From a virus (taxonomy: Duplodnaviria; Heunggongvirae; Uroviricota; Caudoviricetes), in IMG/VR virus record IMGVR_UViG_2651869755_000001: DNA of 24,323 nucleotides; one strand, given 5' to 3'. Made by a program: the position numbers and the translations under genes. A model generated the notes under the pieces. That model made no database searches, was not told where the DNA came from, and was given only the letters and a program-made list of their open reading frames with translations. Numbering within the stretch: the first letter of the stretch is position 1; every line of letters begins with the position of its first letter. Shown here piece after piece: positions 2,847 to 10,238 of this stretch.

Positions 2847-3199
2847 TACGCCTCCGATGTAACAGTCGTTATTCCATAAAGAGTGTCGATTTCAGCGGAA
2901 AACATGACACGTCGGGTCGTGGTATCCACCGTCGTATTGAAAGAGAGGATTGATTTAACGCCCTGCGTTTCGAGGATGCGCTTACGGATCGCCAGGTTGT
3001 AGGTTTCCGGCTTCTGCTTACCGAGTACGGACTGGATCCACGGAGTCCCCTCGGTGGTGTCGAGAAACCATTGCCCATACCACAATTCGAATCGAGTTTT
3101 TACCGCCTGCGCCACGGCCTCCGGTGAGTTAATCAGCCAAGTGTCATCACCGCTGCCAAAGGTGTAATCGCCATCGGCGTCTTCACGTCTGTATCGCAT
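2846..3199 (-). CDS. small baseplate protein, gp25/W-like (117 aa)
   Basis: ORF track. Lies between the spike and J genes. ATGA overlap with the spike gene at 3199. Confidence 0.45.
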   Translation of the reverse strand: MRYRREDADGDYTFGSGDDTWLINSPEAVAQAVKTRFELWYGQWFLDTTEGTPWIQSVLGKQKPETYNLAIRKRILETQGVKSILSFNTTVDTTTRRVMFSAEIDTLYGITTVTSEA

Positions 3200-3951
3200 C
3201 AGTTTACTCCGTCGGTATTGCTTCCACCGCGCTGAACACCACCATGAGTGTGCGTATCATCGATTGGCTTGCCGTTAGCCTTCACGCTACCCAAAAACTC
3301 AACAGCACCAGTGATTTTTGAAGCCACACCAGAAACAACAGACCCCACCATGCCTCCCATCCAGGTTAACAGGCCATGAATGGTTACTTTCTCAGAAAAA
3401 TCAGCCAGAGGGGCAACCACATCAAGGCCCCCCGGAGCGACAATTTTAATTTTCCTGGTATCAGGATTAAGCTCAAAATAGGTGCTGCCGTCATCACTAC
3501 GCAACTGTGTGGCACTGGTATTAATACCGCTAATCTTCCTTGCCTGCGACTGGGGACCGACAATACAAAACGCATCCGATAAATCATGCATTCTGTCATC
3601 GACCGGCTCCTGTATCCCGCCACTCTGCCACCAGAAATCAATACAACGATCGGCAAAAATCACCAAACATTCATCACCGGCTTTAACTGGAAACGTTAGC
3701 GTACAGCCTCCGCCACGCGGGAATACCACTGGCACATCCACCAGCAATGGGTAATTTTTGGTAATGCGGTTGCCGTCGTTATCAATTTCAACGTAACGGA
3801 TAGCAGGCTGTACAACCGCCGTCACCGCATCAGGAGCGAATGACTGAACAATGCCAGGCAAGGCGACACGGATCTGGTTCTTTGTTGTTTCCCGTTCAGA
3901 TTTAAATGTTTCGGCAAGGTCGCCGCTGCGGGTCTGGTCAGATACTGCCAT
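3199..3951 (-). CDS. baseplate spike/assembly protein V-like (250 aa)
   Basis: ORF track. ATG at 3951-3949 preceded by GGAG. Gly-rich C-terminus and position as in Mu gp45 / P2 gpV-type spikes. Confidence 0.5.
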   Translation of the reverse strand: MAVSDQTRSGDLAETFKSERETTKNQIRVALPGIVQSFAPDAVTAVVQPAIRYVEIDNDGNRITKNYPLLVDVPVVFPRGGGCTLTFPVKAGDECLVIFADRCIDFWWQSGGIQEPVDDRMHDLSDAFCIVGPQSQARKISGINTSATQLRSDDGSTYFELNPDTRKIKIVAPGGLDVVAPLADFSEKVTIHGLLTWMGGMVGSVVSGVASKITGAVEFLGSVKANGKPIDDTHTHGGVQRGGSNTDGVN

Positions 3952-3970
3952 TTAGTAGGCTCCAGAAAGC

Positions 3971-3995
3971 AAAAAACCCGCCAAGTGGCGGGTTT
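3971..3995 (-). terminator. rho-independent terminator on the minus strand, closing the two-gene accessory operon
   Basis: Plus strand reads aaaaaa-cccgcc-aagt-ggcggg-ttt. On the minus strand this is a 6-bp GC stem (9 bp counting flanking A:T pairs) with a 4-nt loop followed by TTTTTT, beginning 21 nt after the stop of the 142-aa gene. Confidence 0.7.
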
Positions 3996-4015
3996 GAATT
4001 TTGAGAAATTTCAGC

Positions 4016-4444
4016 TTATGCAGTTAACGAGTCATCACCAATCTTCAGTAATTGATTAACGATTGCATCGACCTCTTCCGCATCCAGAATTACACTTCTC
4101 GCGGTAATCCGGTTGATTTTCCGCTCAAGCTTGTAATCAGAATTAACACGTTGGGCATGCGTCATTTTCAGTTTAACGCCGATTTTCTTTACTGCGTTAA
4201 CATCAACATCGTTAAGTGCAGCTGCCTCACCACTACAAAAGGCCGTATAGACTCGCATGTGAACTCCACCTTTTAGTTTTTCACCATCTTGTGTAGCGGT
4301 CGGTACCAGATTGTTGGTGATCCGTAAGGCGGAATGGTACATACCATAGTATGCTCGGCTAATAGCATTTCTCGTCCACATCTCACCGTTTAGAGCCAGG
4401 GAATGCTTAGCCAATTCAAGAAAACAGGTATGCTCAACCGACAT
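4016..4444 (-). CDS. hypothetical protein (142 aa), distal gene of accessory operon
   Basis: ORF track. ATG 4444-4442 shares one nt with the TAA stop of the upstream gene (TAATG), suggesting translational coupling. About 40% GC by hand count against about 55% in flanking tail genes. Has an R-x6-H spacing at residues 30-37. Confidence 0.6.
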   Translation of the reverse strand: MSVEHTCFLELAKHSLALNGEMWTRNAISRAYYGMYHSALRITNNLVPTATQDGEKLKGGVHMRVYTAFCSGEAAALNDVDVNAVKKIGVKLKMTHAQRVNSDYKLERKINRITARSVILDAEEVDAIVNQLLKIGDDSLTA

Positions 4445-5175
4445 TAGAGTTCCCCGGCTTCAAAGCATCCGACGCATTCTGAATCCGCAAGCCCCGCAAT
4501 AATAATCTCATCAGCCAAGGCATTATTCATCTGCGAAAGAAGCACTGGATCGTCTGTTTTGACTTCAACGAACAGCGTATCAAGTTCTGACATTACATAA
4601 AAAGCATGAGCGCCAGCAAGACGAGCGCGGTACTTTTCTGCAACGTTCATCATGAGCCGCCCAATAGTTTTTAGCTCCTGAGCATGATCTTTTTGGGTAT
4701 GCAGATAATTGAGCGTGTCATACCATTTGCCCATATCTTCAGGGCGCGGCACTTCCATTGCAGTTAGCATCGGCATCACCTTTTCAAGCAAATCGATATC
4801 AACCCAGTATGCAGAAATTGTAGCAACCTCAGCCAATATCGTTGGATTAAGTGAATCAGATGCTTTCTGAATCATCACATACTGGCGAGCATGCAAACCT
4901 AAGTTACGCAGCGCAATCGTATAGTTACAAAAAGAAACTGGATCGTTAGGCGCTATTCTCAACCCCCGCTCACAGAGTGAACATCCTTCATCTATTTCAC
5001 CAAGAACAAGCTTAGCTAAGCCTTCAATTGATAGCCCCTGATAACGTTCAGGTAGTTTCTTCGCTTCACGAATGATTCGATGGATTTCAAACTCACTCAG
5101 AAGGTTTTCACCCTTAGTTAATGAAGGAGTCAGAAGATCTAACAGTTCTCCTGATTTTGGCTGCGCTAAGCTCAT
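4444..5175 (-). CDS. hypothetical protein (243 aa), proximal gene of accessory operon
   Basis: ORF track. ATG at 5175-5173 with AGGAAT upstream. Low GC. Two CxxC pairs (CSLC near residue 64, CVGC near residue 235). Preceded by a 149-bp non-coding spacer. Confidence 0.6.
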   Translation of the reverse strand: MSLAQPKSGELLDLLTPSLTKGENLLSEFEIHRIIREAKKLPERYQGLSIEGLAKLVLGEIDEGCSLCERGLRIAPNDPVSFCNYTIALRNLGLHARQYVMIQKASDSLNPTILAEVATISAYWVDIDLLEKVMPMLTAMEVPRPEDMGKWYDTLNYLHTQKDHAQELKTIGRLMMNVAEKYRARLAGAHAFYVMSELDTLFVEVKTDDPVLLSQMNNALADEIIIAGLADSECVGCFEAGEL

Positions 5176-5324
5176 GTTTTAGTTATTCCTGGCTTTAATG
5201 AAGTAGCATATCGATGGCAATCCACCATCAAAAAGTCAGTGCAGTGTAATCGCTCGTCTCAAAAAACAACAGTTTTTAGAGCACATTTTGTTGTTTTTCA
5301 GGCGTTACGAATTTCAGGTTACCT

Positions 5325-5666
5325 TCACCCAGCCACTTTTTTACAAGGGAAAGATCCGATGATTTTCGGCGCATCCATGCTGTTCTGCAGAAGCTGGACA
5401 TTCAGGAATCGCGTTTCGGTACCAGGGCGACGAATGTATTCAAAGCCGTAGTTGTTACCGTCTTTGGCAGGCATAAGCCCCATGTCTACTTTCAAACCAT
5501 TGGTACCCAGTTCGGTGATTTTTTGAGAGGTAACTCTTTCACCGTTGATAGTCGATAACTCGCCCTGGTTTGCAACCATAGTGTAGCCACCGCATTTAAC
5601 CGTGAAGCCATCCGCCCACGCGCTGCACGCAGAAAAGACAGCTAACAGAAAAATAATACCCCTCAT
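5325..5666 (-). CDS. predicted lipoprotein or secreted protein (113 aa)
   Basis: N-terminus MRGIIFLLAVFSACSAWADG: positive residue, hydrophobic core, lipobox-like FSAC (Cys14), and an AWA signal peptidase I motif. ATG at 5666-5664 lies 3 nt after the hub gene TGA, with AAGGGGA upstream. Confidence 0.6.
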   Translation of the reverse strand: MRGIIFLLAVFSACSAWADGFTVKCGGYTMVANQGELSTINGERVTSQKITELGTNGLKVDMGLMPAKDGNNYGFEYIRRPGTETRFLNVQLLQNSMDAPKIIGSFPCKKVAG

Positions 5667-5669
5667 TGC

Positions 5670-6731
5670 TCATCCCCTTTGCAAAGCCGATCGCGTATAC
5701 AGATCCGCCGCGCCACGCGCTTCGCACATCATATCCATGTACCACGCCTGGCCCCTTGTGTCGCCAGTGTACATAATCCCGCGCACAATATAAACGCCAT
5801 CCGTTGCGATGCTGGCAGGCTGCGATGTGGTGCCGCTTAGCGTGATATTTCCATCCGTGTTCTGGTCGGTGATCTGACCACCAGCCATCGCAATATCGTT
5901 GTTCGACAAGGCGGTACGATACACGGAAGCCTGATCCAGCTGAATAAGTCCGTTAACCCGGATGTTCGGATTAATAAGCGCGCGGACGTTTACGCCGTTA
6001 CCGATAGTCTGCTGCGGCATGCCAATAAGCCCGGTAGCGCTGTTGAGCACAATCGCTTCATGAACATATTCGTTATTCGCCACCATCTGGCGCTGACCGT
6101 CCACGAATTGCCATGTTGTGCCACATTGCCCGGCTACGTTATCCATTAGATGCCGCGTCATGCCAAAGAGTACCCGCCCCCGGGGGAATACAGTAGCAGG
6201 CATTTCCGGCGTCAGGCCTTCGGTCGCGCCTTTGGCTTCGAAGTCTTTCATCAGCGCACGGTTTACATCAGCGACCGTGTAACCGGCAGCCAGCGTCTGT
6301 GAGGTTATACTGGTGGCAAAAGCCAGATCAGTATCTGCTGCCTGAATCAGGACGTAGGAATCAACCGGACTGTCTTTTCCTGTGACCGAGTAGCGAATTT
6401 CACCGCTGAAAATCAGTCCGTAGTTGCGGCCATCACTCTGACCCACGTCCGCCGCGTCAACTTCCCGCACGGTCCCGACGTCGCTTGCCGACACCTCCGG
6501 CGCGATACCGTCGTAACCGGCAATCATACGCACTTTCGAAAACTCCTGCCCGGTGATTCGGTTCACAGTATCTGCCGAGAGGTTATAAATTTTGATAGTC
6601 CCTACCCGGGACGCGCTGCTGATGTTGAACCAGTCGATCGTAAAGGTGACTTTAAAATCACTTAGCTCAATTCCCTGACCGTTCCCGTCCACAAGCTGCA
6701 GCTCGAAATGTCTCATCCAGTTCTGTGACAT
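5670..6731 (-). CDS. putative baseplate hub protein (353 aa)
   Basis: ORF track. ATG start. Position between the post-tape-measure genes and the spike, as for Mu gp44 / P2 gpD-type hubs. Assignment is by synteny. Confidence 0.45.
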   Translation of the reverse strand: MSQNWMRHFELQLVDGNGQGIELSDFKVTFTIDWFNISSASRVGTIKIYNLSADTVNRITGQEFSKVRMIAGYDGIAPEVSASDVGTVREVDAADVGQSDGRNYGLIFSGEIRYSVTGKDSPVDSYVLIQAADTDLAFATSITSQTLAAGYTVADVNRALMKDFEAKGATEGLTPEMPATVFPRGRVLFGMTRHLMDNVAGQCGTTWQFVDGQRQMVANNEYVHEAIVLNSATGLIGMPQQTIGNGVNVRALINPNIRVNGLIQLDQASVYRTALSNNDIAMAGGQITDQNTDGNITLSGTTSQPASIATDGVYIVRGIMYTGDTRGQAWYMDMMCEARGAADLYTRSALQRG

Positions 6732-6733
6732 GC

Positions 6734-7036
6734 TTACTCCGTTGATACCAGTAAATGGCTGCGACCGCCCAGGTCAGTTTTTGTGGGGTAATCCTGTGTG
6801 TTGTCATCACAGACCACCACCAGCTTAAAACCAAGCCCCATACAGGCGTACTGCGCCAGCAGGTCAGCACCAGTGACGAGAGGAATACCGGAGATTACCG
6901 GCTCCCCTCTGTCGTTCTGCAGGTCCATAATCCAGTACAGATCGCGCCATATGATGCTAATCCGCCAGGTGACACCACCCAGGACGATGCTGAACTGCTG
7001 GTTGTCCGCTGTCAGCGGAATTTCCTGAATTGTCAT
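6734..7036 (-). CDS. small tail/baseplate protein (100 aa)
   Basis: ORF track. Start overlaps the stop of the upstream gene. Synteny only. Confidence 0.4.
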   Translation of the reverse strand: MTIQEIPLTADNQQFSIVLGGVTWRISIIWRDLYWIMDLQNDRGEPVISGIPLVTGADLLAQYACMGLGFKLVVVCDDNTQDYPTKTDLGGRSHLLVSTE

Positions 7037-7623
7037 TAGCCGCCCCCCAGTAATGACGCCACGTTACCCGTGATGCTTTTCAGCAGTGAAGTATCTGGAG
7101 GTTTTGTGGTTTTGTTGCCGCTGTTCTGTACCGCCGACGTGCTGGCCCCTTCCTTCATGTTGGTTTTATCCGCGACGGTAATCTGCTGTGTCCGGGAGAT
7201 AATGACCTCCCTCAGGGTGAGGACGGCGGACAGGACGTTTTCGGTTGTCTTGTCCGTCGTCACTTCCAGCGCCCGGATCAACATGTTGCTGTACAGCCGT
7301 TTACCGGTTACCACATCGAAGGGGATACGGCTTTCCTGCAGATCCAGTAGCTCCTGATACGTCTGCTGAGGACTCAGGCCGAGCAGGCTGGTAGCCGTCA
7401 GGTTACTGGCAAAATCCAGCAATGCGCCGCCACCGGCGAAACCAACCTCCATCACCACTTCTGACGGTTTTTTATAGGCATGATCAGCGACAGCGGCCCC
7501 GACCTCTACCGGATGCTCTGTTATTTCAAGCATATCTGTATGCTTCTCTGAAATAACAACACTGGGAACAATCATTCCTATTTTTCTGCTCTGCTGATGA
7601 AAAAGTGTAGAGAGAATATCCAC
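7036..7623 (-). CDS. tail protein downstream of tape measure (195 aa)
   Basis: ORF track. Apparent GTG start at 7623-7621 preceded by GAGGGTGGG and overlapping the tape-measure stop. Synteny only. Confidence 0.4.
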   Translation of the reverse strand: MDILSTLFHQQSRKIGMIVPSVVISEKHTDMLEITEHPVEVGAAVADHAYKKPSEVVMEVGFAGGGALLDFASNLTATSLLGLSPQQTYQELLDLQESRIPFDVVTGKRLYSNMLIRALEVTTDKTTENVLSAVLTLREVIISRTQQITVADKTNMKEGASTSAVQNSGNKTTKPPDTSLLKSITGNVASLLGGG

Positions 7624-9608
7624 TAACCCACCCTCACCTGATTACTTCGCATGACCTGAGCATTTGCAGACTGTTGCCGACGTGCAACCTCATTACCGAC
7701 AGCGTGCGGATCTCCGCCACCGTAAATATGGTAGGTATTTTGCTGGTTAACCTCTGTCACTTTGCCACTAATTCCCGCCACGGCAGCCTTATTAATCAGC
7801 TCTCGAGAATAGATATTTCTTCCATTCTCATGCTGGATAATGCTGCTCATCAATGCTGACATGGTTTGCGGATCGCTCATATTCAGGGCAGCCCGGGGAT
7901 CCACTCCCAGTCGTTGCGATACAGCCCTGATATACGCGGTTGTGTTGTTATTATCAGACGCAGGTGCCCAGGTAGAGATAATTTTCTCCACACTGTTTAT
8001 TCCCCGTCCGGCGTACAGCATTAACTGACGAGCAAGAGCCCGTAATCCATCAAAAGCGGTTTCAAATCTGGCAAATCGCCCGCCCGGTCGTTCAAGAGAA
8101 GCCCCCGCCTGACCAGCAAAATTAAGGTTTCCCGGATTGTTATTCCGTTCTCCTCGCTTCGTAGCCTGTGCATGTTGTTCCGGCTCAGCACCTGGAATAT
8201 CTGACTGAATATTTGCGCCTTTTACGGTATGAGGATTACGACCAAAATCGGTATCAATGCCAAGCCAGCGCAATGAATCTCCAATATTTTGTTTCGTGTA
8301 ATCCCAGGATGACTTCGCACTGGCACCAATATTTTCGCGATCGGAGTACAAATAAGCAGCATAAGCCATCCAGCCTTTTAACCATGGCGGTACCGGCAAA
8401 CCAGATATTTTCCCGAAAGCCCCCAGAACCCTGGATACCCAGACACCCGCGATGAATGTACCGAGGATTTCCAGTGCATTTTGCCAGCCGCCAACACCAT
8501 CTTTTAGTTCCAGAAGGTGATCACGAAGCCAGGTGATCGCATCCTTCGCTTTATCTATTGCCGGTTGCCATTTTTCCCAGTCGATAAGACTGTTACCGCC
8601 TTCTTTCCATGTTTTGTAGTCTTCCCACAAGAGACCGAGAGCCACGATCAGACCGGTAATCAGCCCTATAGGTGACATCCAGAAAGTAGAGTTAAGTATC
8701 CGCATGGCGACAACCAGACCGCCGATAACCTCTATCAGGGTTTTCGTTTCGGCATCCAGTTTCCCCCACCACTCGATGATATCTCCGACACCATCGACTA
8801 TCCGAAATGCTACCCGCCCGACTATCTCACCCAGCCAGAGGATCCCCTTTATGACCTTTGTGATGGTGACTTCAATTTTGGGAAAATTTTCAATTATCTT
8901 TTTGCGCAGGTTATCAATCTGCCCCGCCAGTCCGTCCGCAAGATTCGATCCGATTTTGTCCCGCGCCATCCCGGCCATTTCACCGAGCGATTTCAGCGAG
9001 GTCATAAACCGGTTTGACGATAAGGCAGCCTGATCGGCATTAAATCCGATCGCTTTCACCATTTCTGAATACTGAGCGCTGAACTGCCCCACTCCGCGAC
9101 GCATAGCCATCAGGGTATTTTCGTCAATGCCCAGCATCTGCGCATACTGGTTAGCCCGGTAATACGGCATGCTGCTGAGTTTCTGTCCAACGCCCGTAAA
9201 GATAGCAGCCATGTCACGCATGTTACCGCGGGCATCACGGGTCTGTACGCCCAGGCGATTCAGAAAGCCTTCTGCTCCGGGATTGTTACGAATAAACCGG
9301 GAGAGGCTTTCCAGAGAAGATCGCGCAGCGTCCACACTGCCGCCAACCTGCGAAACCGCATAGCCAATAGACTGAATTCCCTGGACCGTCGCGCCGGTGC
9401 GCTGTGACGCCCAGTAAAGATTATCCAGGCCGGAGGCGATCTTAGCCGTGAAGGCCACCACGGACAGCGCAGCTCCTTCAACAGCCAGCCCCATTTTGAT
9501 GACATTTGCAGTTGTACCGGCGAGGACAGAACCGAACTTTTTCGCTCCTGCATCATCCACACTGAAGCCAAGCGAGACGAGGAAATCTTTAATAGTTTCA
9601 GCGTTCAT
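7623..9608 (-). CDS. tail tape measure protein
   Basis: Longest tail ORF, between chaperone and baseplate genes, with a hydrophobic central segment. The track start at 9629 is TTG; the ATG at 9608-9606 preceded by GGAGAGAGG is the more likely start (about 661 aa). Confidence 0.75.
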   Translation of the reverse strand: MNAETIKDFLVSLGFSVDDAGAKKFGSVLAGTTANVIKMGLAVEGAALSVVAFTAKIASGLDNLYWASQRTGATVQGIQSIGYAVSQVGGSVDAARSSLESLSRFIRNNPGAEGFLNRLGVQTRDARGNMRDMAAIFTGVGQKLSSMPYYRANQYAQMLGIDENTLMAMRRGVGQFSAQYSEMVKAIGFNADQAALSSNRFMTSLKSLGEMAGMARDKIGSNLADGLAGQIDNLRKKIIENFPKIEVTITKVIKGILWLGEIVGRVAFRIVDGVGDIIEWWGKLDAETKTLIEVIGGLVVAMRILNSTFWMSPIGLITGLIVALGLLWEDYKTWKEGGNSLIDWEKWQPAIDKAKDAITWLRDHLLELKDGVGGWQNALEILGTFIAGVWVSRVLGAFGKISGLPVPPWLKGWMAYAAYLYSDRENIGASAKSSWDYTKQNIGDSLRWLGIDTDFGRNPHTVKGANIQSDIPGAEPEQHAQATKRGERNNNPGNLNFAGQAGASLERPGGRFARFETAFDGLRALARQLMLYAGRGINSVEKIISTWAPASDNNNTTAYIRAVSQRLGVDPRAALNMSDPQTMSALMSSIIQHENGRNIYSRELINKAAVAGISGKVTEVNQQNTYHIYGGGDPHAVGNEVARRQQSANAQVMRSNQVRVG

Positions 9609-10238
9609 TATCCTCTCTCCATTTCTCAATGCGCCGCTGGTTATCCGCTTTTACCGCCAGATGGTCATTCAAGAGAGCAATGTCATACAAATCGACAGAG
9701 CCATCTTTAAGTGCTGTATAGGGAATTAACCCGGCGTCAACCGGATTGAGAAGGTAGGACAGCCCGTCCGGCAGGCTGTTAAACGTCAGCCCTGTTGCAG
9801 GCTCTGTGTCGTGCTGGTAAGGGGTGTAGGCAAAAAATTTCCCAGCGAATCGGCGACCACCCGCGCCACCAGATGAAGCATGACCAGCAAGTCAATATCA
9901 TCAAACATCAGTTCACCCTGGGTAAATACCGGAACCCATCCGTCCATATGACGCCGCGACACCACCGCAAGACAGGGATGAATAATCGCATCGGTGTCAT
10001 CTTCGGTCAGGGAAGACAGTTCCTCAGCGATACGCGGGAGCATGGTTTCAAACACCGGTTTTAACTGCTCGAATTTCACGGTGTCGATTTTGCCGTCAGC
10101 AGGCAAACGGGAGCGAATGCTCCCGAAATCTGACATCATTCCCGCCAGTACCGGCAGAAGTTTGCGGGTCACTTTCAGCTGGTCAAAAACGCTGAGTTTT
10201 GCCACGCGATATTTCACGCCTTTAATTTCGAATTCCAT
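9598..10238 (-). CDS. predicted chaperone frameshift fusion product (G-T-like, about 213 aa)
   Basis: Zero frame 10238 to about 9841 joined to the -1 frame 9840-9598. The extension was hand-translated with no stops (…NSLPDGLSYLLNPVDAGLIPYTALKDGSVDLYDIALLNDHLAVKADNQRRIEKWREDNER) and fills the otherwise non-coding 156-bp gap before the tape measure. Confidence 0.45.
9786..10238 (-). CDS. tail assembly chaperone (150 aa, zero-frame product)
   Basis: ORF track. ATG start. Lies between the tube and tape measure genes. Confidence 0.6.
   Translation of the reverse strand: MEFEIKGVKYRVAKLSVFDQLKVTRKLLPVLAGMMSDFGSIRSRLPADGKIDTVKFEQLKPVFETMLPRIAEELSSLTEDDTDAIIHPCLAVVSRRHMDGWVPVFTQGELMFDDIDLLVMLHLVARVVADSLGNFLPTPLTSTTQSLQQG
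9837..9843 (-). other. candidate -1 programmed frameshift slippery heptamer G_GGA_AAT in the tail assembly chaperone gene
   Basis: Minus strand reads CTG GGA AAT TTT TTG in the chaperone zero frame. The -1 frame is open from here for about 80 codons to a TGA at 9600-9598. The lambda G/GT site is GGGAAAG. Confidence 0.5.

Follow-up and report, generated by a model that had tools for sequence, protein, structure and literature searches.

This analysis concerns a small gene, here called X, that adjoins the baseplate hub gene in a 24,323-nucleotide stretch of Caudoviricetes DNA (IMG/VR record IMGVR_UViG_2651869755_000001; the whole stretch is referred to below as the window). X is an open reading frame (ORF) with an ATG start, located at 5325..5666 on the minus strand (stop codon included), and its 113-amino-acid product (MRGIIFLLAVFSACSAWADGFTVKCGG...FPCKKVAG, as translated from this interval) is a member of the PHROG family phrog_3443. 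The hub gene (5670..6731, minus strand) matches phrog_196, "baseplate hub", at E 1e-87 and, weakly, PF22759 at E 6.8e-5. Its 3' end reads ...AGG GGA TGA, then GCA, then the ATG of X: the hub stop codon (TGA, 5670..5672, minus) and the X start are separated by a three-nucleotide spacer (5667..5669, minus), and a well-spaced Shine-Dalgarno sequence, AGGGGA (5673..5678, minus), lies within the last hub codons, 6 nucleotides before the ATG. Both the ORF and its position 3 nucleotides after the hub stop are thus as a preliminary description of the locus had reported. That description also took X for a lipoprotein. The conservation pattern of the family indicates instead that X is most likely a Sec substrate cleaved by signal peptidase I.

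X is a real gene rather than a chance ORF, because 396 homologues were retrieved, phrog_3443 matches it over its full length (E 8.4e-48; residues 2-112 against profile positions 2-114 of 115), and the ratio of nonsynonymous to synonymous divergence (dN/dS) is 0.07 relative to the gene of Yersinia phage YP3. The YP3 gene is 92% identical and differs mostly at synonymous positions; these sequence comparisons indicate that X is under purifying selection. An exhaustive profile search of 1.84 billion cluster representatives returned just 40 clusters, so the family is small. Databases already list the family: the match to phrog_3443, to which no function is assigned, is the only one in PHROG, and the name "STY1065/STY2022 family phage-derived protein" is attached to a 98.6%-identical locus in one RefSeq genome, E. 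coli 09A19CPO009. The NCBIfam release that we searched contains no model for the STY1065/STY2022 family. Scans of X and 29 family members against Pfam, NCBIfam and PADLOC gave no family match, Pfam returned nothing for X itself at E <= 0.1, and a profile search of PDB sequences with the X family found nothing significant. Literature searches on SEN34, STY1065/STY2022 and periplasmic exclusion proteins turned up nothing on the X family, and the RefSeq family name occurs in no paper that we found.

Existing annotations of X homologues require some care. The RefSeq coding sequence SEN34_20 of Salmonella phage SEN34 (L002 4001..4342) is annotated from an internal Met and is 78 amino acids long; the full ORF begins with a TTG 2 nucleotides after the hub stop and includes the signal peptide. 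The homologue in ST340-VIM1phi10.1, named "putative exported protein", is annotated from the same kind of truncated start. At the other extreme, several very long proteins (P0123, 4267 amino acids; P0142, 5298 amino acids; P0144; P0156; P0160) have as many as 19 separate matches to the X profile and are probably artefactual gene calls or concatenations.

The predicted signal peptide of X covers residues 1-18 (MRGIIFLLAVFSACSAWA; 5613..5666, minus). Read from the sequence, the N-terminus consists of Arg2, the hydrophobic core GIIFLLAVFSA and the triplet A16-W-A18, after which signal peptidase I is predicted to cut, followed by D19. X therefore has the positive n-region, the hydrophobic h-region and the small residues at -3 and -1 by which Sec signals cleaved by signal peptidase I are recognized. 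Among the minus-strand ORFs of at least 50 amino acids in the window, the embedded Rz1 alone outscores X in N-terminal hydrophobicity. We aligned 120 close homologues and then representatives from the exhaustive profile search. Within the close set neither the AxA site nor A18 varies, and distant members have an equivalent site. Essentially all of the 131 full-length members used for pattern counts carry an AxA-type site and then, about 3-7 residues on, an invariant Cys-Gly containing Cys25, and this is true down to 26-30% identity. The commonest endings of the signal peptide in the family are ...SFSA-AAS/G and ...SFGA-TAG/G. A second cysteine of the mature part, Cys108, five residues from the C-terminus, is nearly invariant across the family. 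These are the two further cysteines noted in the preliminary description, and the conserved signal peptide and cleavage site likewise bear out its view of X as a secreted envelope protein.

The cysteine of the supposed lipobox behaves differently. In the preliminary description the signal peptide included a lipobox-like FSAC; Arg2, the hydrophobic core and the AWA motif are all there, but FSAC is not a canonical lipobox and its cysteine (Cys14; codon at 5625..5627, minus) is not conserved. With Phe at -3, the motif fails the canonical pattern [LVI][ASTVI][GAS]C and fits only a permissive PROSITE-type pattern. The PROSITE lipobox rule also requires the cysteine at position 15-35, and in FSAC it is at position 14. 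Even the permissive pattern is found in just 14 of the 131 members, X included, while the other 117 have no usable cysteine. The canonical pattern has one match, at residues 5-8 of ST405_114, which is spurious, leaving no genuine canonical lipobox in the set. Alleles that are 82-91% identical to that of the window, such as P0006 and P0007, have Ser or Tyr in place of Cys14. Conservation of the lipobox cysteine among homologues, as expected of bacterial lipoproteins, is thus lacking in the X family, and cleavage after A18 would remove Cys14 together with the signal peptide. The window does contain a genuine lipoprotein for comparison, to judge from its sequence: the 53-amino-acid Rz1-like o-spanin (21402..21563, minus), which has the canonical lipobox LLSGC and is embedded in the gene for a 174-amino-acid Rz-like i-spanin with an N-terminal membrane anchor (21301..21825, minus).

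Membrane tethering of the X domain does occur in the wider family. The 292-amino-acid protein P0146 (L007 8001..8879; L008 4625..5503) consists of a genuine lipobox, VVLSGC, an uncharacterised region of about 190 residues and a C-terminal X domain. Its gene lies directly 3' of the hub gene in a related metagenomic phage, the same genomic slot that X occupies.

To obtain a fold for the mature domain (residues 19-113; 5328..5612, minus), we ran AlphaFold2 on these residues with an alignment extending to members of only about 25% identity. The resulting model has a mean predicted local distance difference test (pLDDT) score of 91.3 and a predicted template modeling (pTM) score of 0.80, with all five models at 90 or above; it replaced a poor model (pLDDT 67.5) that had been built with the signal peptide and close homologues only. 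It contains seven long β strands of 5-10 residues and two short bridges, which we read as a small closed meander barrel of a generic all-β kind. In the model Cys25 (codon 5592..5594, minus) sits on the first strand and Cys108 (codon 5343..5345, minus) on the last, and the two probably form a disulfide. A pair of conserved cysteines fits with an oxidising compartment. The model resembles small soluble barrels: its best structural matches are avidin- and calycin-like barrels, and avidins and many unrelated barrels score above PliC. When the model was searched with Foldseek in PDB and BFVD, no hit fell below E 1e-3. One weak BFVD match is named "Lipoprotein [Serratia phage Scapp]"; no feature in the GenBank record is so named, and we could not trace the match to a particular gene. 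Weighted entropies calculated for each element did not support a division of the barrel into a conserved end and a variable end.

The window's long ORFs with recognisable functions all share the minus strand, where they make up a late operon of the lambda type. It runs from a Q antiterminator (23449..23871) through a holin (22289..22648) and Rz with its embedded Rz1 to the small terminase and portal and then the sheath and tube, which lie between Rz/Rz1 and the tape-measure protein (7623..9629). A 158-amino-acid ORF between holin and Rz (21809..22285, minus), the expected place of an endolysin, has no Pfam match at E <= 0.01. Next come a Dit-like protein (7036..7623), a plug of the Pam3 gp18 type (6734..7036, between the Dit-like gene and the hub), the hub and X; past X and two cargo genes are a gpV-type spike (3199..3951), the sheath initiator, baseplate protein J and the fibre.

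Several features place X within this late transcript. A consensus scan of the minus strand over 3800..7000 found no sigma-70-like promoter, although a weak promoter could escape such a scan. There is no terminator-like site directly 3' of X, and an AT-rich hairpin downstream of it is weak (z-score -0.84), no more stable than shuffled sequence. X therefore lacks the promoter and terminator of its own that mark a moron. In two loci without cargo (L066 and L085), X lies 65-67 nucleotides upstream of the spike in the middle of the late operon, so that transcription of the baseplate genes must run through it. Given the lack of a detected promoter and the tight coupling to the hub, the simplest view is that X belongs to the late genes and is translated along with the hub, and we regard it as probably late-expressed on the basis of sequence. 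This agrees with the late expression proposed in the preliminary description; the same observations lend no support to its other suggestion, that X acts in the lysogen.

Linkage to the hub is strict. Using the close X alignment, we assembled 80 IMG/VR loci (L017-L096), and X is directly 3' of the hub in every one, with a spacer of 2-9 nucleotides. The same arrangement is found in YP3, SEN34, Mulock, vB_EcoM-689R2 and the Klebsiella ST340, ST11 and ST405 prophages, the last group at 28-35% identity. By tblastn, X is detected in at least 19 of 152 phage records with this hub type (a lower bound; ST405-OXA48phi1.2 was missed). Of 5426 complete E. coli genomes, 409 have this hub type, and blastn detects X in 288 of these, many of which match the conserved 3' half only. 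The window itself matches an E. coli prophage at 100% identity. SEN34-like prophages are common, and they are also present in Klebsiella, Salmonella and Yersinia. A rare chromosomal form exists as well: P0158 (118 amino acids, profile E 1e-4; L010 8001..8357) is encoded between cls/yciY and yciI on a metagenomic contig with no phage genes nearby. A search for this chromosomal subfamily found two clusters only, the second being a Mixta gaviniae protein at 74% identity.

Despite this linkage, X is not found in all phages with this tail architecture. In Providencia phage PSTCR3 the hub overlaps the spike with nothing between them, and in Hafnia phage yong1, whose hub is 77% identical, an unrelated 136-amino-acid protein with no signal peptide occupies the slot; neither has a member of the X family. 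X must therefore be dispensable for the tail and is not structural, which upholds the earlier view that it has no obvious role in a baseplate. The possibility that X is nevertheless a virion or baseplate-assembly component, with a hydrophobic N-terminus that is not an export signal, draws on its position between hub and spike and on the close junction with the hub, both seen in 80 of 80 loci, but it is very unlikely given these two phages, the conserved signal peptide, cleavage site and cysteine pair, and X alleles that are only 61% identical in tails whose structural proteins are 97-100% identical.

This last comparison comes from vB_EcoM-689R2. Its tape-measure, Dit-like, plug, hub, spike, sheath-initiator and J proteins are 97-100% identical to those of the window, and its X is just 61% identical, with the breakpoint about 30 nucleotides before the hub stop. 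Three sisters of 689R2 (606R2, 611R5 and 683R1) share the fibre as well, at 97%. YP3 presents the converse case: its X is 97% identical to that of the window, its cargo is different, and the breakpoint falls in the last X codons. The C-terminus of the tape measure differs between these two phages too, despite the 97% identity of X. YP3, SEN34, ST340, L007 and yong1 carry an SLT lytic transglycosylase domain there, whereas Mulock, 689R2, ST405 and the window do not, and the presence of the domain at the same place in relatives indicates that it has been swapped. The C-terminal residues of the window's tape measure (about 200; 7623..8300, including GERNNNPGNLNF...IIQHENG) have no Pfam match. Across the IMG/VR loci, the two main X alleles, both spike classes and the various cargo types are combined in different ways. 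X thus behaves as an exchangeable module: its alleles assort without regard to which tape-measure lysin domain, hub, spike or fibre accompanies them.

The junction between hub and spike (3952..5324 in the window) is a recombination and cargo hot spot headed by X. In 79 IMG/VR loci the distance from X to the spike ranges from 65 nucleotides to about 1.85 kilobases, and the cargo genes are mostly unrelated between phages. The window carries two, both on the minus strand: a gene for a 243-amino-acid TPR-like protein (4444..5175; phrog_22649), and one for a 142-amino-acid, weakly HEPN-like protein (4016..4444; phrog_5176; PADLOC HEPN_IX, E 0.009) whose start overlaps the stop of the first. The pair is preceded by a 149-nucleotide gap, has a GC fraction of about 0.40-0.47 compared to about 0.50-0.56 in the flanking tail genes, and is replaced by unrelated genes in relatives. 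A strong terminator-like hairpin with a T-run (3974..3995, minus) closes the block just upstream of the spike. L007 has a distantly related pair (263 and 127 amino acids) in the same slot. The two genes of the window could be a defence or toxin-antitoxin-like module. Much of the cargo at this junction is membrane-bound or secreted, including SEN34_21, Mulock_21, L008_265, an opposite-strand gene in ST405 and Magia gp21. The Magia protein, from a Burkholderia phage, has 123 amino acids and an evident signal peptide; its gene likewise occupies the hub-spike junction, on the opposite strand (L015 3457..3828). Profile-profile comparison of the X family with the secreted junction proteins of Magia and SEN34 (gp21) gave a match to the signal peptide only, or none, so the Magia protein is unrelated to X. 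The cargo of ST340 includes a 188-amino-acid protein resembling an HExxH metalloprotease.

Given these results, we consider it probable that SEN34-like temperate myophages carry X as an accessory protein without a structural role, and that it is a late, Sec-exported, signal peptidase I-cleaved, soluble periplasmic barrel. X would be translated from the Q-dependent late transcript in tight coupling to the hub, exported via Sec and cut by signal peptidase I after Ala18, with removal of Cys14. In the periplasm it would fold into a soluble all-β barrel of about 95 residues, probably with a Cys25-Cys108 disulfide.

What such a protein might do there is suggested by its surroundings. Because X appears to be exported and non-structural yet tied to the tail operon, in a hot spot rich in envelope proteins, we propose tentatively that it interferes at the envelope with phage entry or re-adsorption. 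The module-like exchange of its alleles, the tethering of its domain in P0146 and the precedent of Llp from phage T5 point in the same direction. Periplasmic X could bind a host envelope component or an incoming tail tip, and binding could block adsorption or DNA entry of further phage particles. The infected cell would then be protected late, and released progeny would be spared abortive attachment to infected cells and debris. A late function that protects both progeny and the infected cell fits better than classical exclusion based on the lysogen. Taken as a whole, identity and envelope interference together form the best explanation that we can offer, and it is held with reserve. The broader notion that X represents a new class of late-expressed soluble periplasmic barrels, blocking entry or abortive re-adsorption from the periplasmic side, is speculative and rather unlikely.

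Several known systems bear on this proposal. Lambda Lom is an integral outer-membrane barrel of about 200 residues and Bor is a lipoprotein; both are expressed in lysogens. X resembles them as an envelope protein encoded among phage late genes, but with 95 mature residues it lacks the length needed for a membrane-spanning barrel, neither a promoter nor a terminator of its own could be detected, and in Pfam it matches neither the Lom/Ail (PF06316) nor the Bor (PF06291) family. T5 Llp, a small phage protein that blocks its receptor from the periplasmic face of the outer membrane, is the closest model in logic (PMC9586334). Llp and the Cor proteins of T1, phi80 and N15 mediate superinfection exclusion through FhuA from the periplasmic side, contain one intramolecular disulfide and are encoded beside tail genes (PMC9586334). 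Like them, X is a small phage envelope protein with tail genes for neighbours. Llp and Cor differ from it as lipoproteins of about 60-80 residues encoded beside the gene for the receptor-binding protein, whereas X has 95 mature residues, no conserved lipobox and a place beside the hub; there is no sequence match between them, and the allele of X does not follow that of the fibre. When the preliminary description likened X to Lom, Bor, Cor and Llp, the likeness was one of context, with no sequence or family match behind it. T4 Spackle (gp61.3) offers another comparison as a small Sec-exported periplasmic protein with one disulfide that targets the incoming tail tip (PMC7677548). X shares its small size, its apparent export and a pair of cysteines, but Spackle is an α-helical bundle and early, while X is predicted to be all-β, is probably expressed late and shows no co-variation with the lysin domain of the tail. 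To PliC and MliC, X has no Pfam match, and its modelled fold is no more similar to theirs than to avidins or designed barrels.

A number of points weigh against exclusion by a processed periplasmic X. The function is inferred from context, and no homologue of established function was found. Most exclusion proteins described so far are early products or are produced in the lysogen; X seems to be late only, which weakens the case for classical superinfection exclusion and favours the protection of progeny alone. A search for partners that co-vary with X among the tape-measure lysin domain, the hub, the spike and the fibre found none, and since X alleles track none of these, no partner can be named from the genomes. 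Finally, the N-terminal sequence makes lipidation of this particular allele at Cys14 possible.

Among the other accounts of X, the one that survives best keeps it at the envelope and gives it another role, as a late helper of lysis and release or as a small ligand- or lipid-binding barrel that alters the physiology of the host envelope and so serves as a conversion or fitness factor. The probable co-expression of X with late genes would suit this account. Its best structural matches, the avidin- and calycin-like barrels, are often small-ligand binders, and the rare chromosomal copy by cls/yciY together with the 74%-identical Mixta gaviniae protein suggests a use independent of phages. Against this, a complete lysis cassette (holin, Rz/Rz1) is found elsewhere in the window, a barrel of 95 residues is smaller than ligand-binding avidins and has no recognised avidin motifs, and a conversion factor needs expression in the lysogen, for which no promoter was found. 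Overall, we give this account a minor chance of being correct.

Alternatively, X could inhibit cell-wall hydrolases in the periplasm, with a fold like that of PliC or MliC and a role like that of Spackle, and so resist lysis from without or superinfection by acting on incoming tail lysins. The SLT domain in the tape measures of relatives would provide a target, and Spackle is likewise small, periplasmic and held by one disulfide (PMC7677548). Still, neither MliC/PliC (PF09864) nor any other Pfam family matches any of 29 members even at E <= 5, and PliC is outscored by avidins and many unrelated barrels. Nor does X follow the proposed target: near-identical X (97%) accompanies an SLT C-terminus in YP3 and a non-SLT one in the window, and yong1 has SLT without X. 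Spackle, besides, is an α-helical early gene product (PMC7677548). We consider inhibition of this kind improbable.

Slightly less probable again is that this allele alone is an outer-membrane lipoprotein, acylated at Cys14, sent by Lol to the outer membrane on account of Ser at +2 and acting there as a receptor blocker in the manner of Cor and Llp. It would be consistent with the fit of FSAC and 13 other members to the permissive pattern, with the LSGC lipobox that precedes the X domain of P0146 at the same genomic position, and with the ability of small disulfide-containing lipoproteins such as Llp and Cor to exclude phages (PMC9586334). The Phe at -3, the early position of Cys14 and its absence from most of the family, including closely similar alleles, argue otherwise, as does the contrast with the canonical LLSGC of Rz1. 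In addition, the conserved AxA lies 4 residues past Cys14, merely 6 residues would separate a lipid anchor from the first strand, and X has no sequence match to any named phage lipoprotein family.

As a member of a family already listed in databases under phrog_3443 and a RefSeq name, X is a further example of the exported accessory proteins found in phage tail modules. What is new here is a correction of the targeting class and a fold predicted with confidence, together with the observation that X is strictly linked to the hub while its alleles are exchanged as modules, and the recognition of the hub-spike junction as a cargo hot spot. In annotation, the family should be described as a secreted periplasmic protein of unknown function, of the signal peptidase I type, and not as a lipoprotein. 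X is a plausible cause of phage-phage exclusion or progeny protection, which makes it relevant to prophage annotation and to the prediction of host range in phage therapy. If it does act in this way, its exchangeable alleles would reflect an arms race among co-circulating SEN34-like phages.
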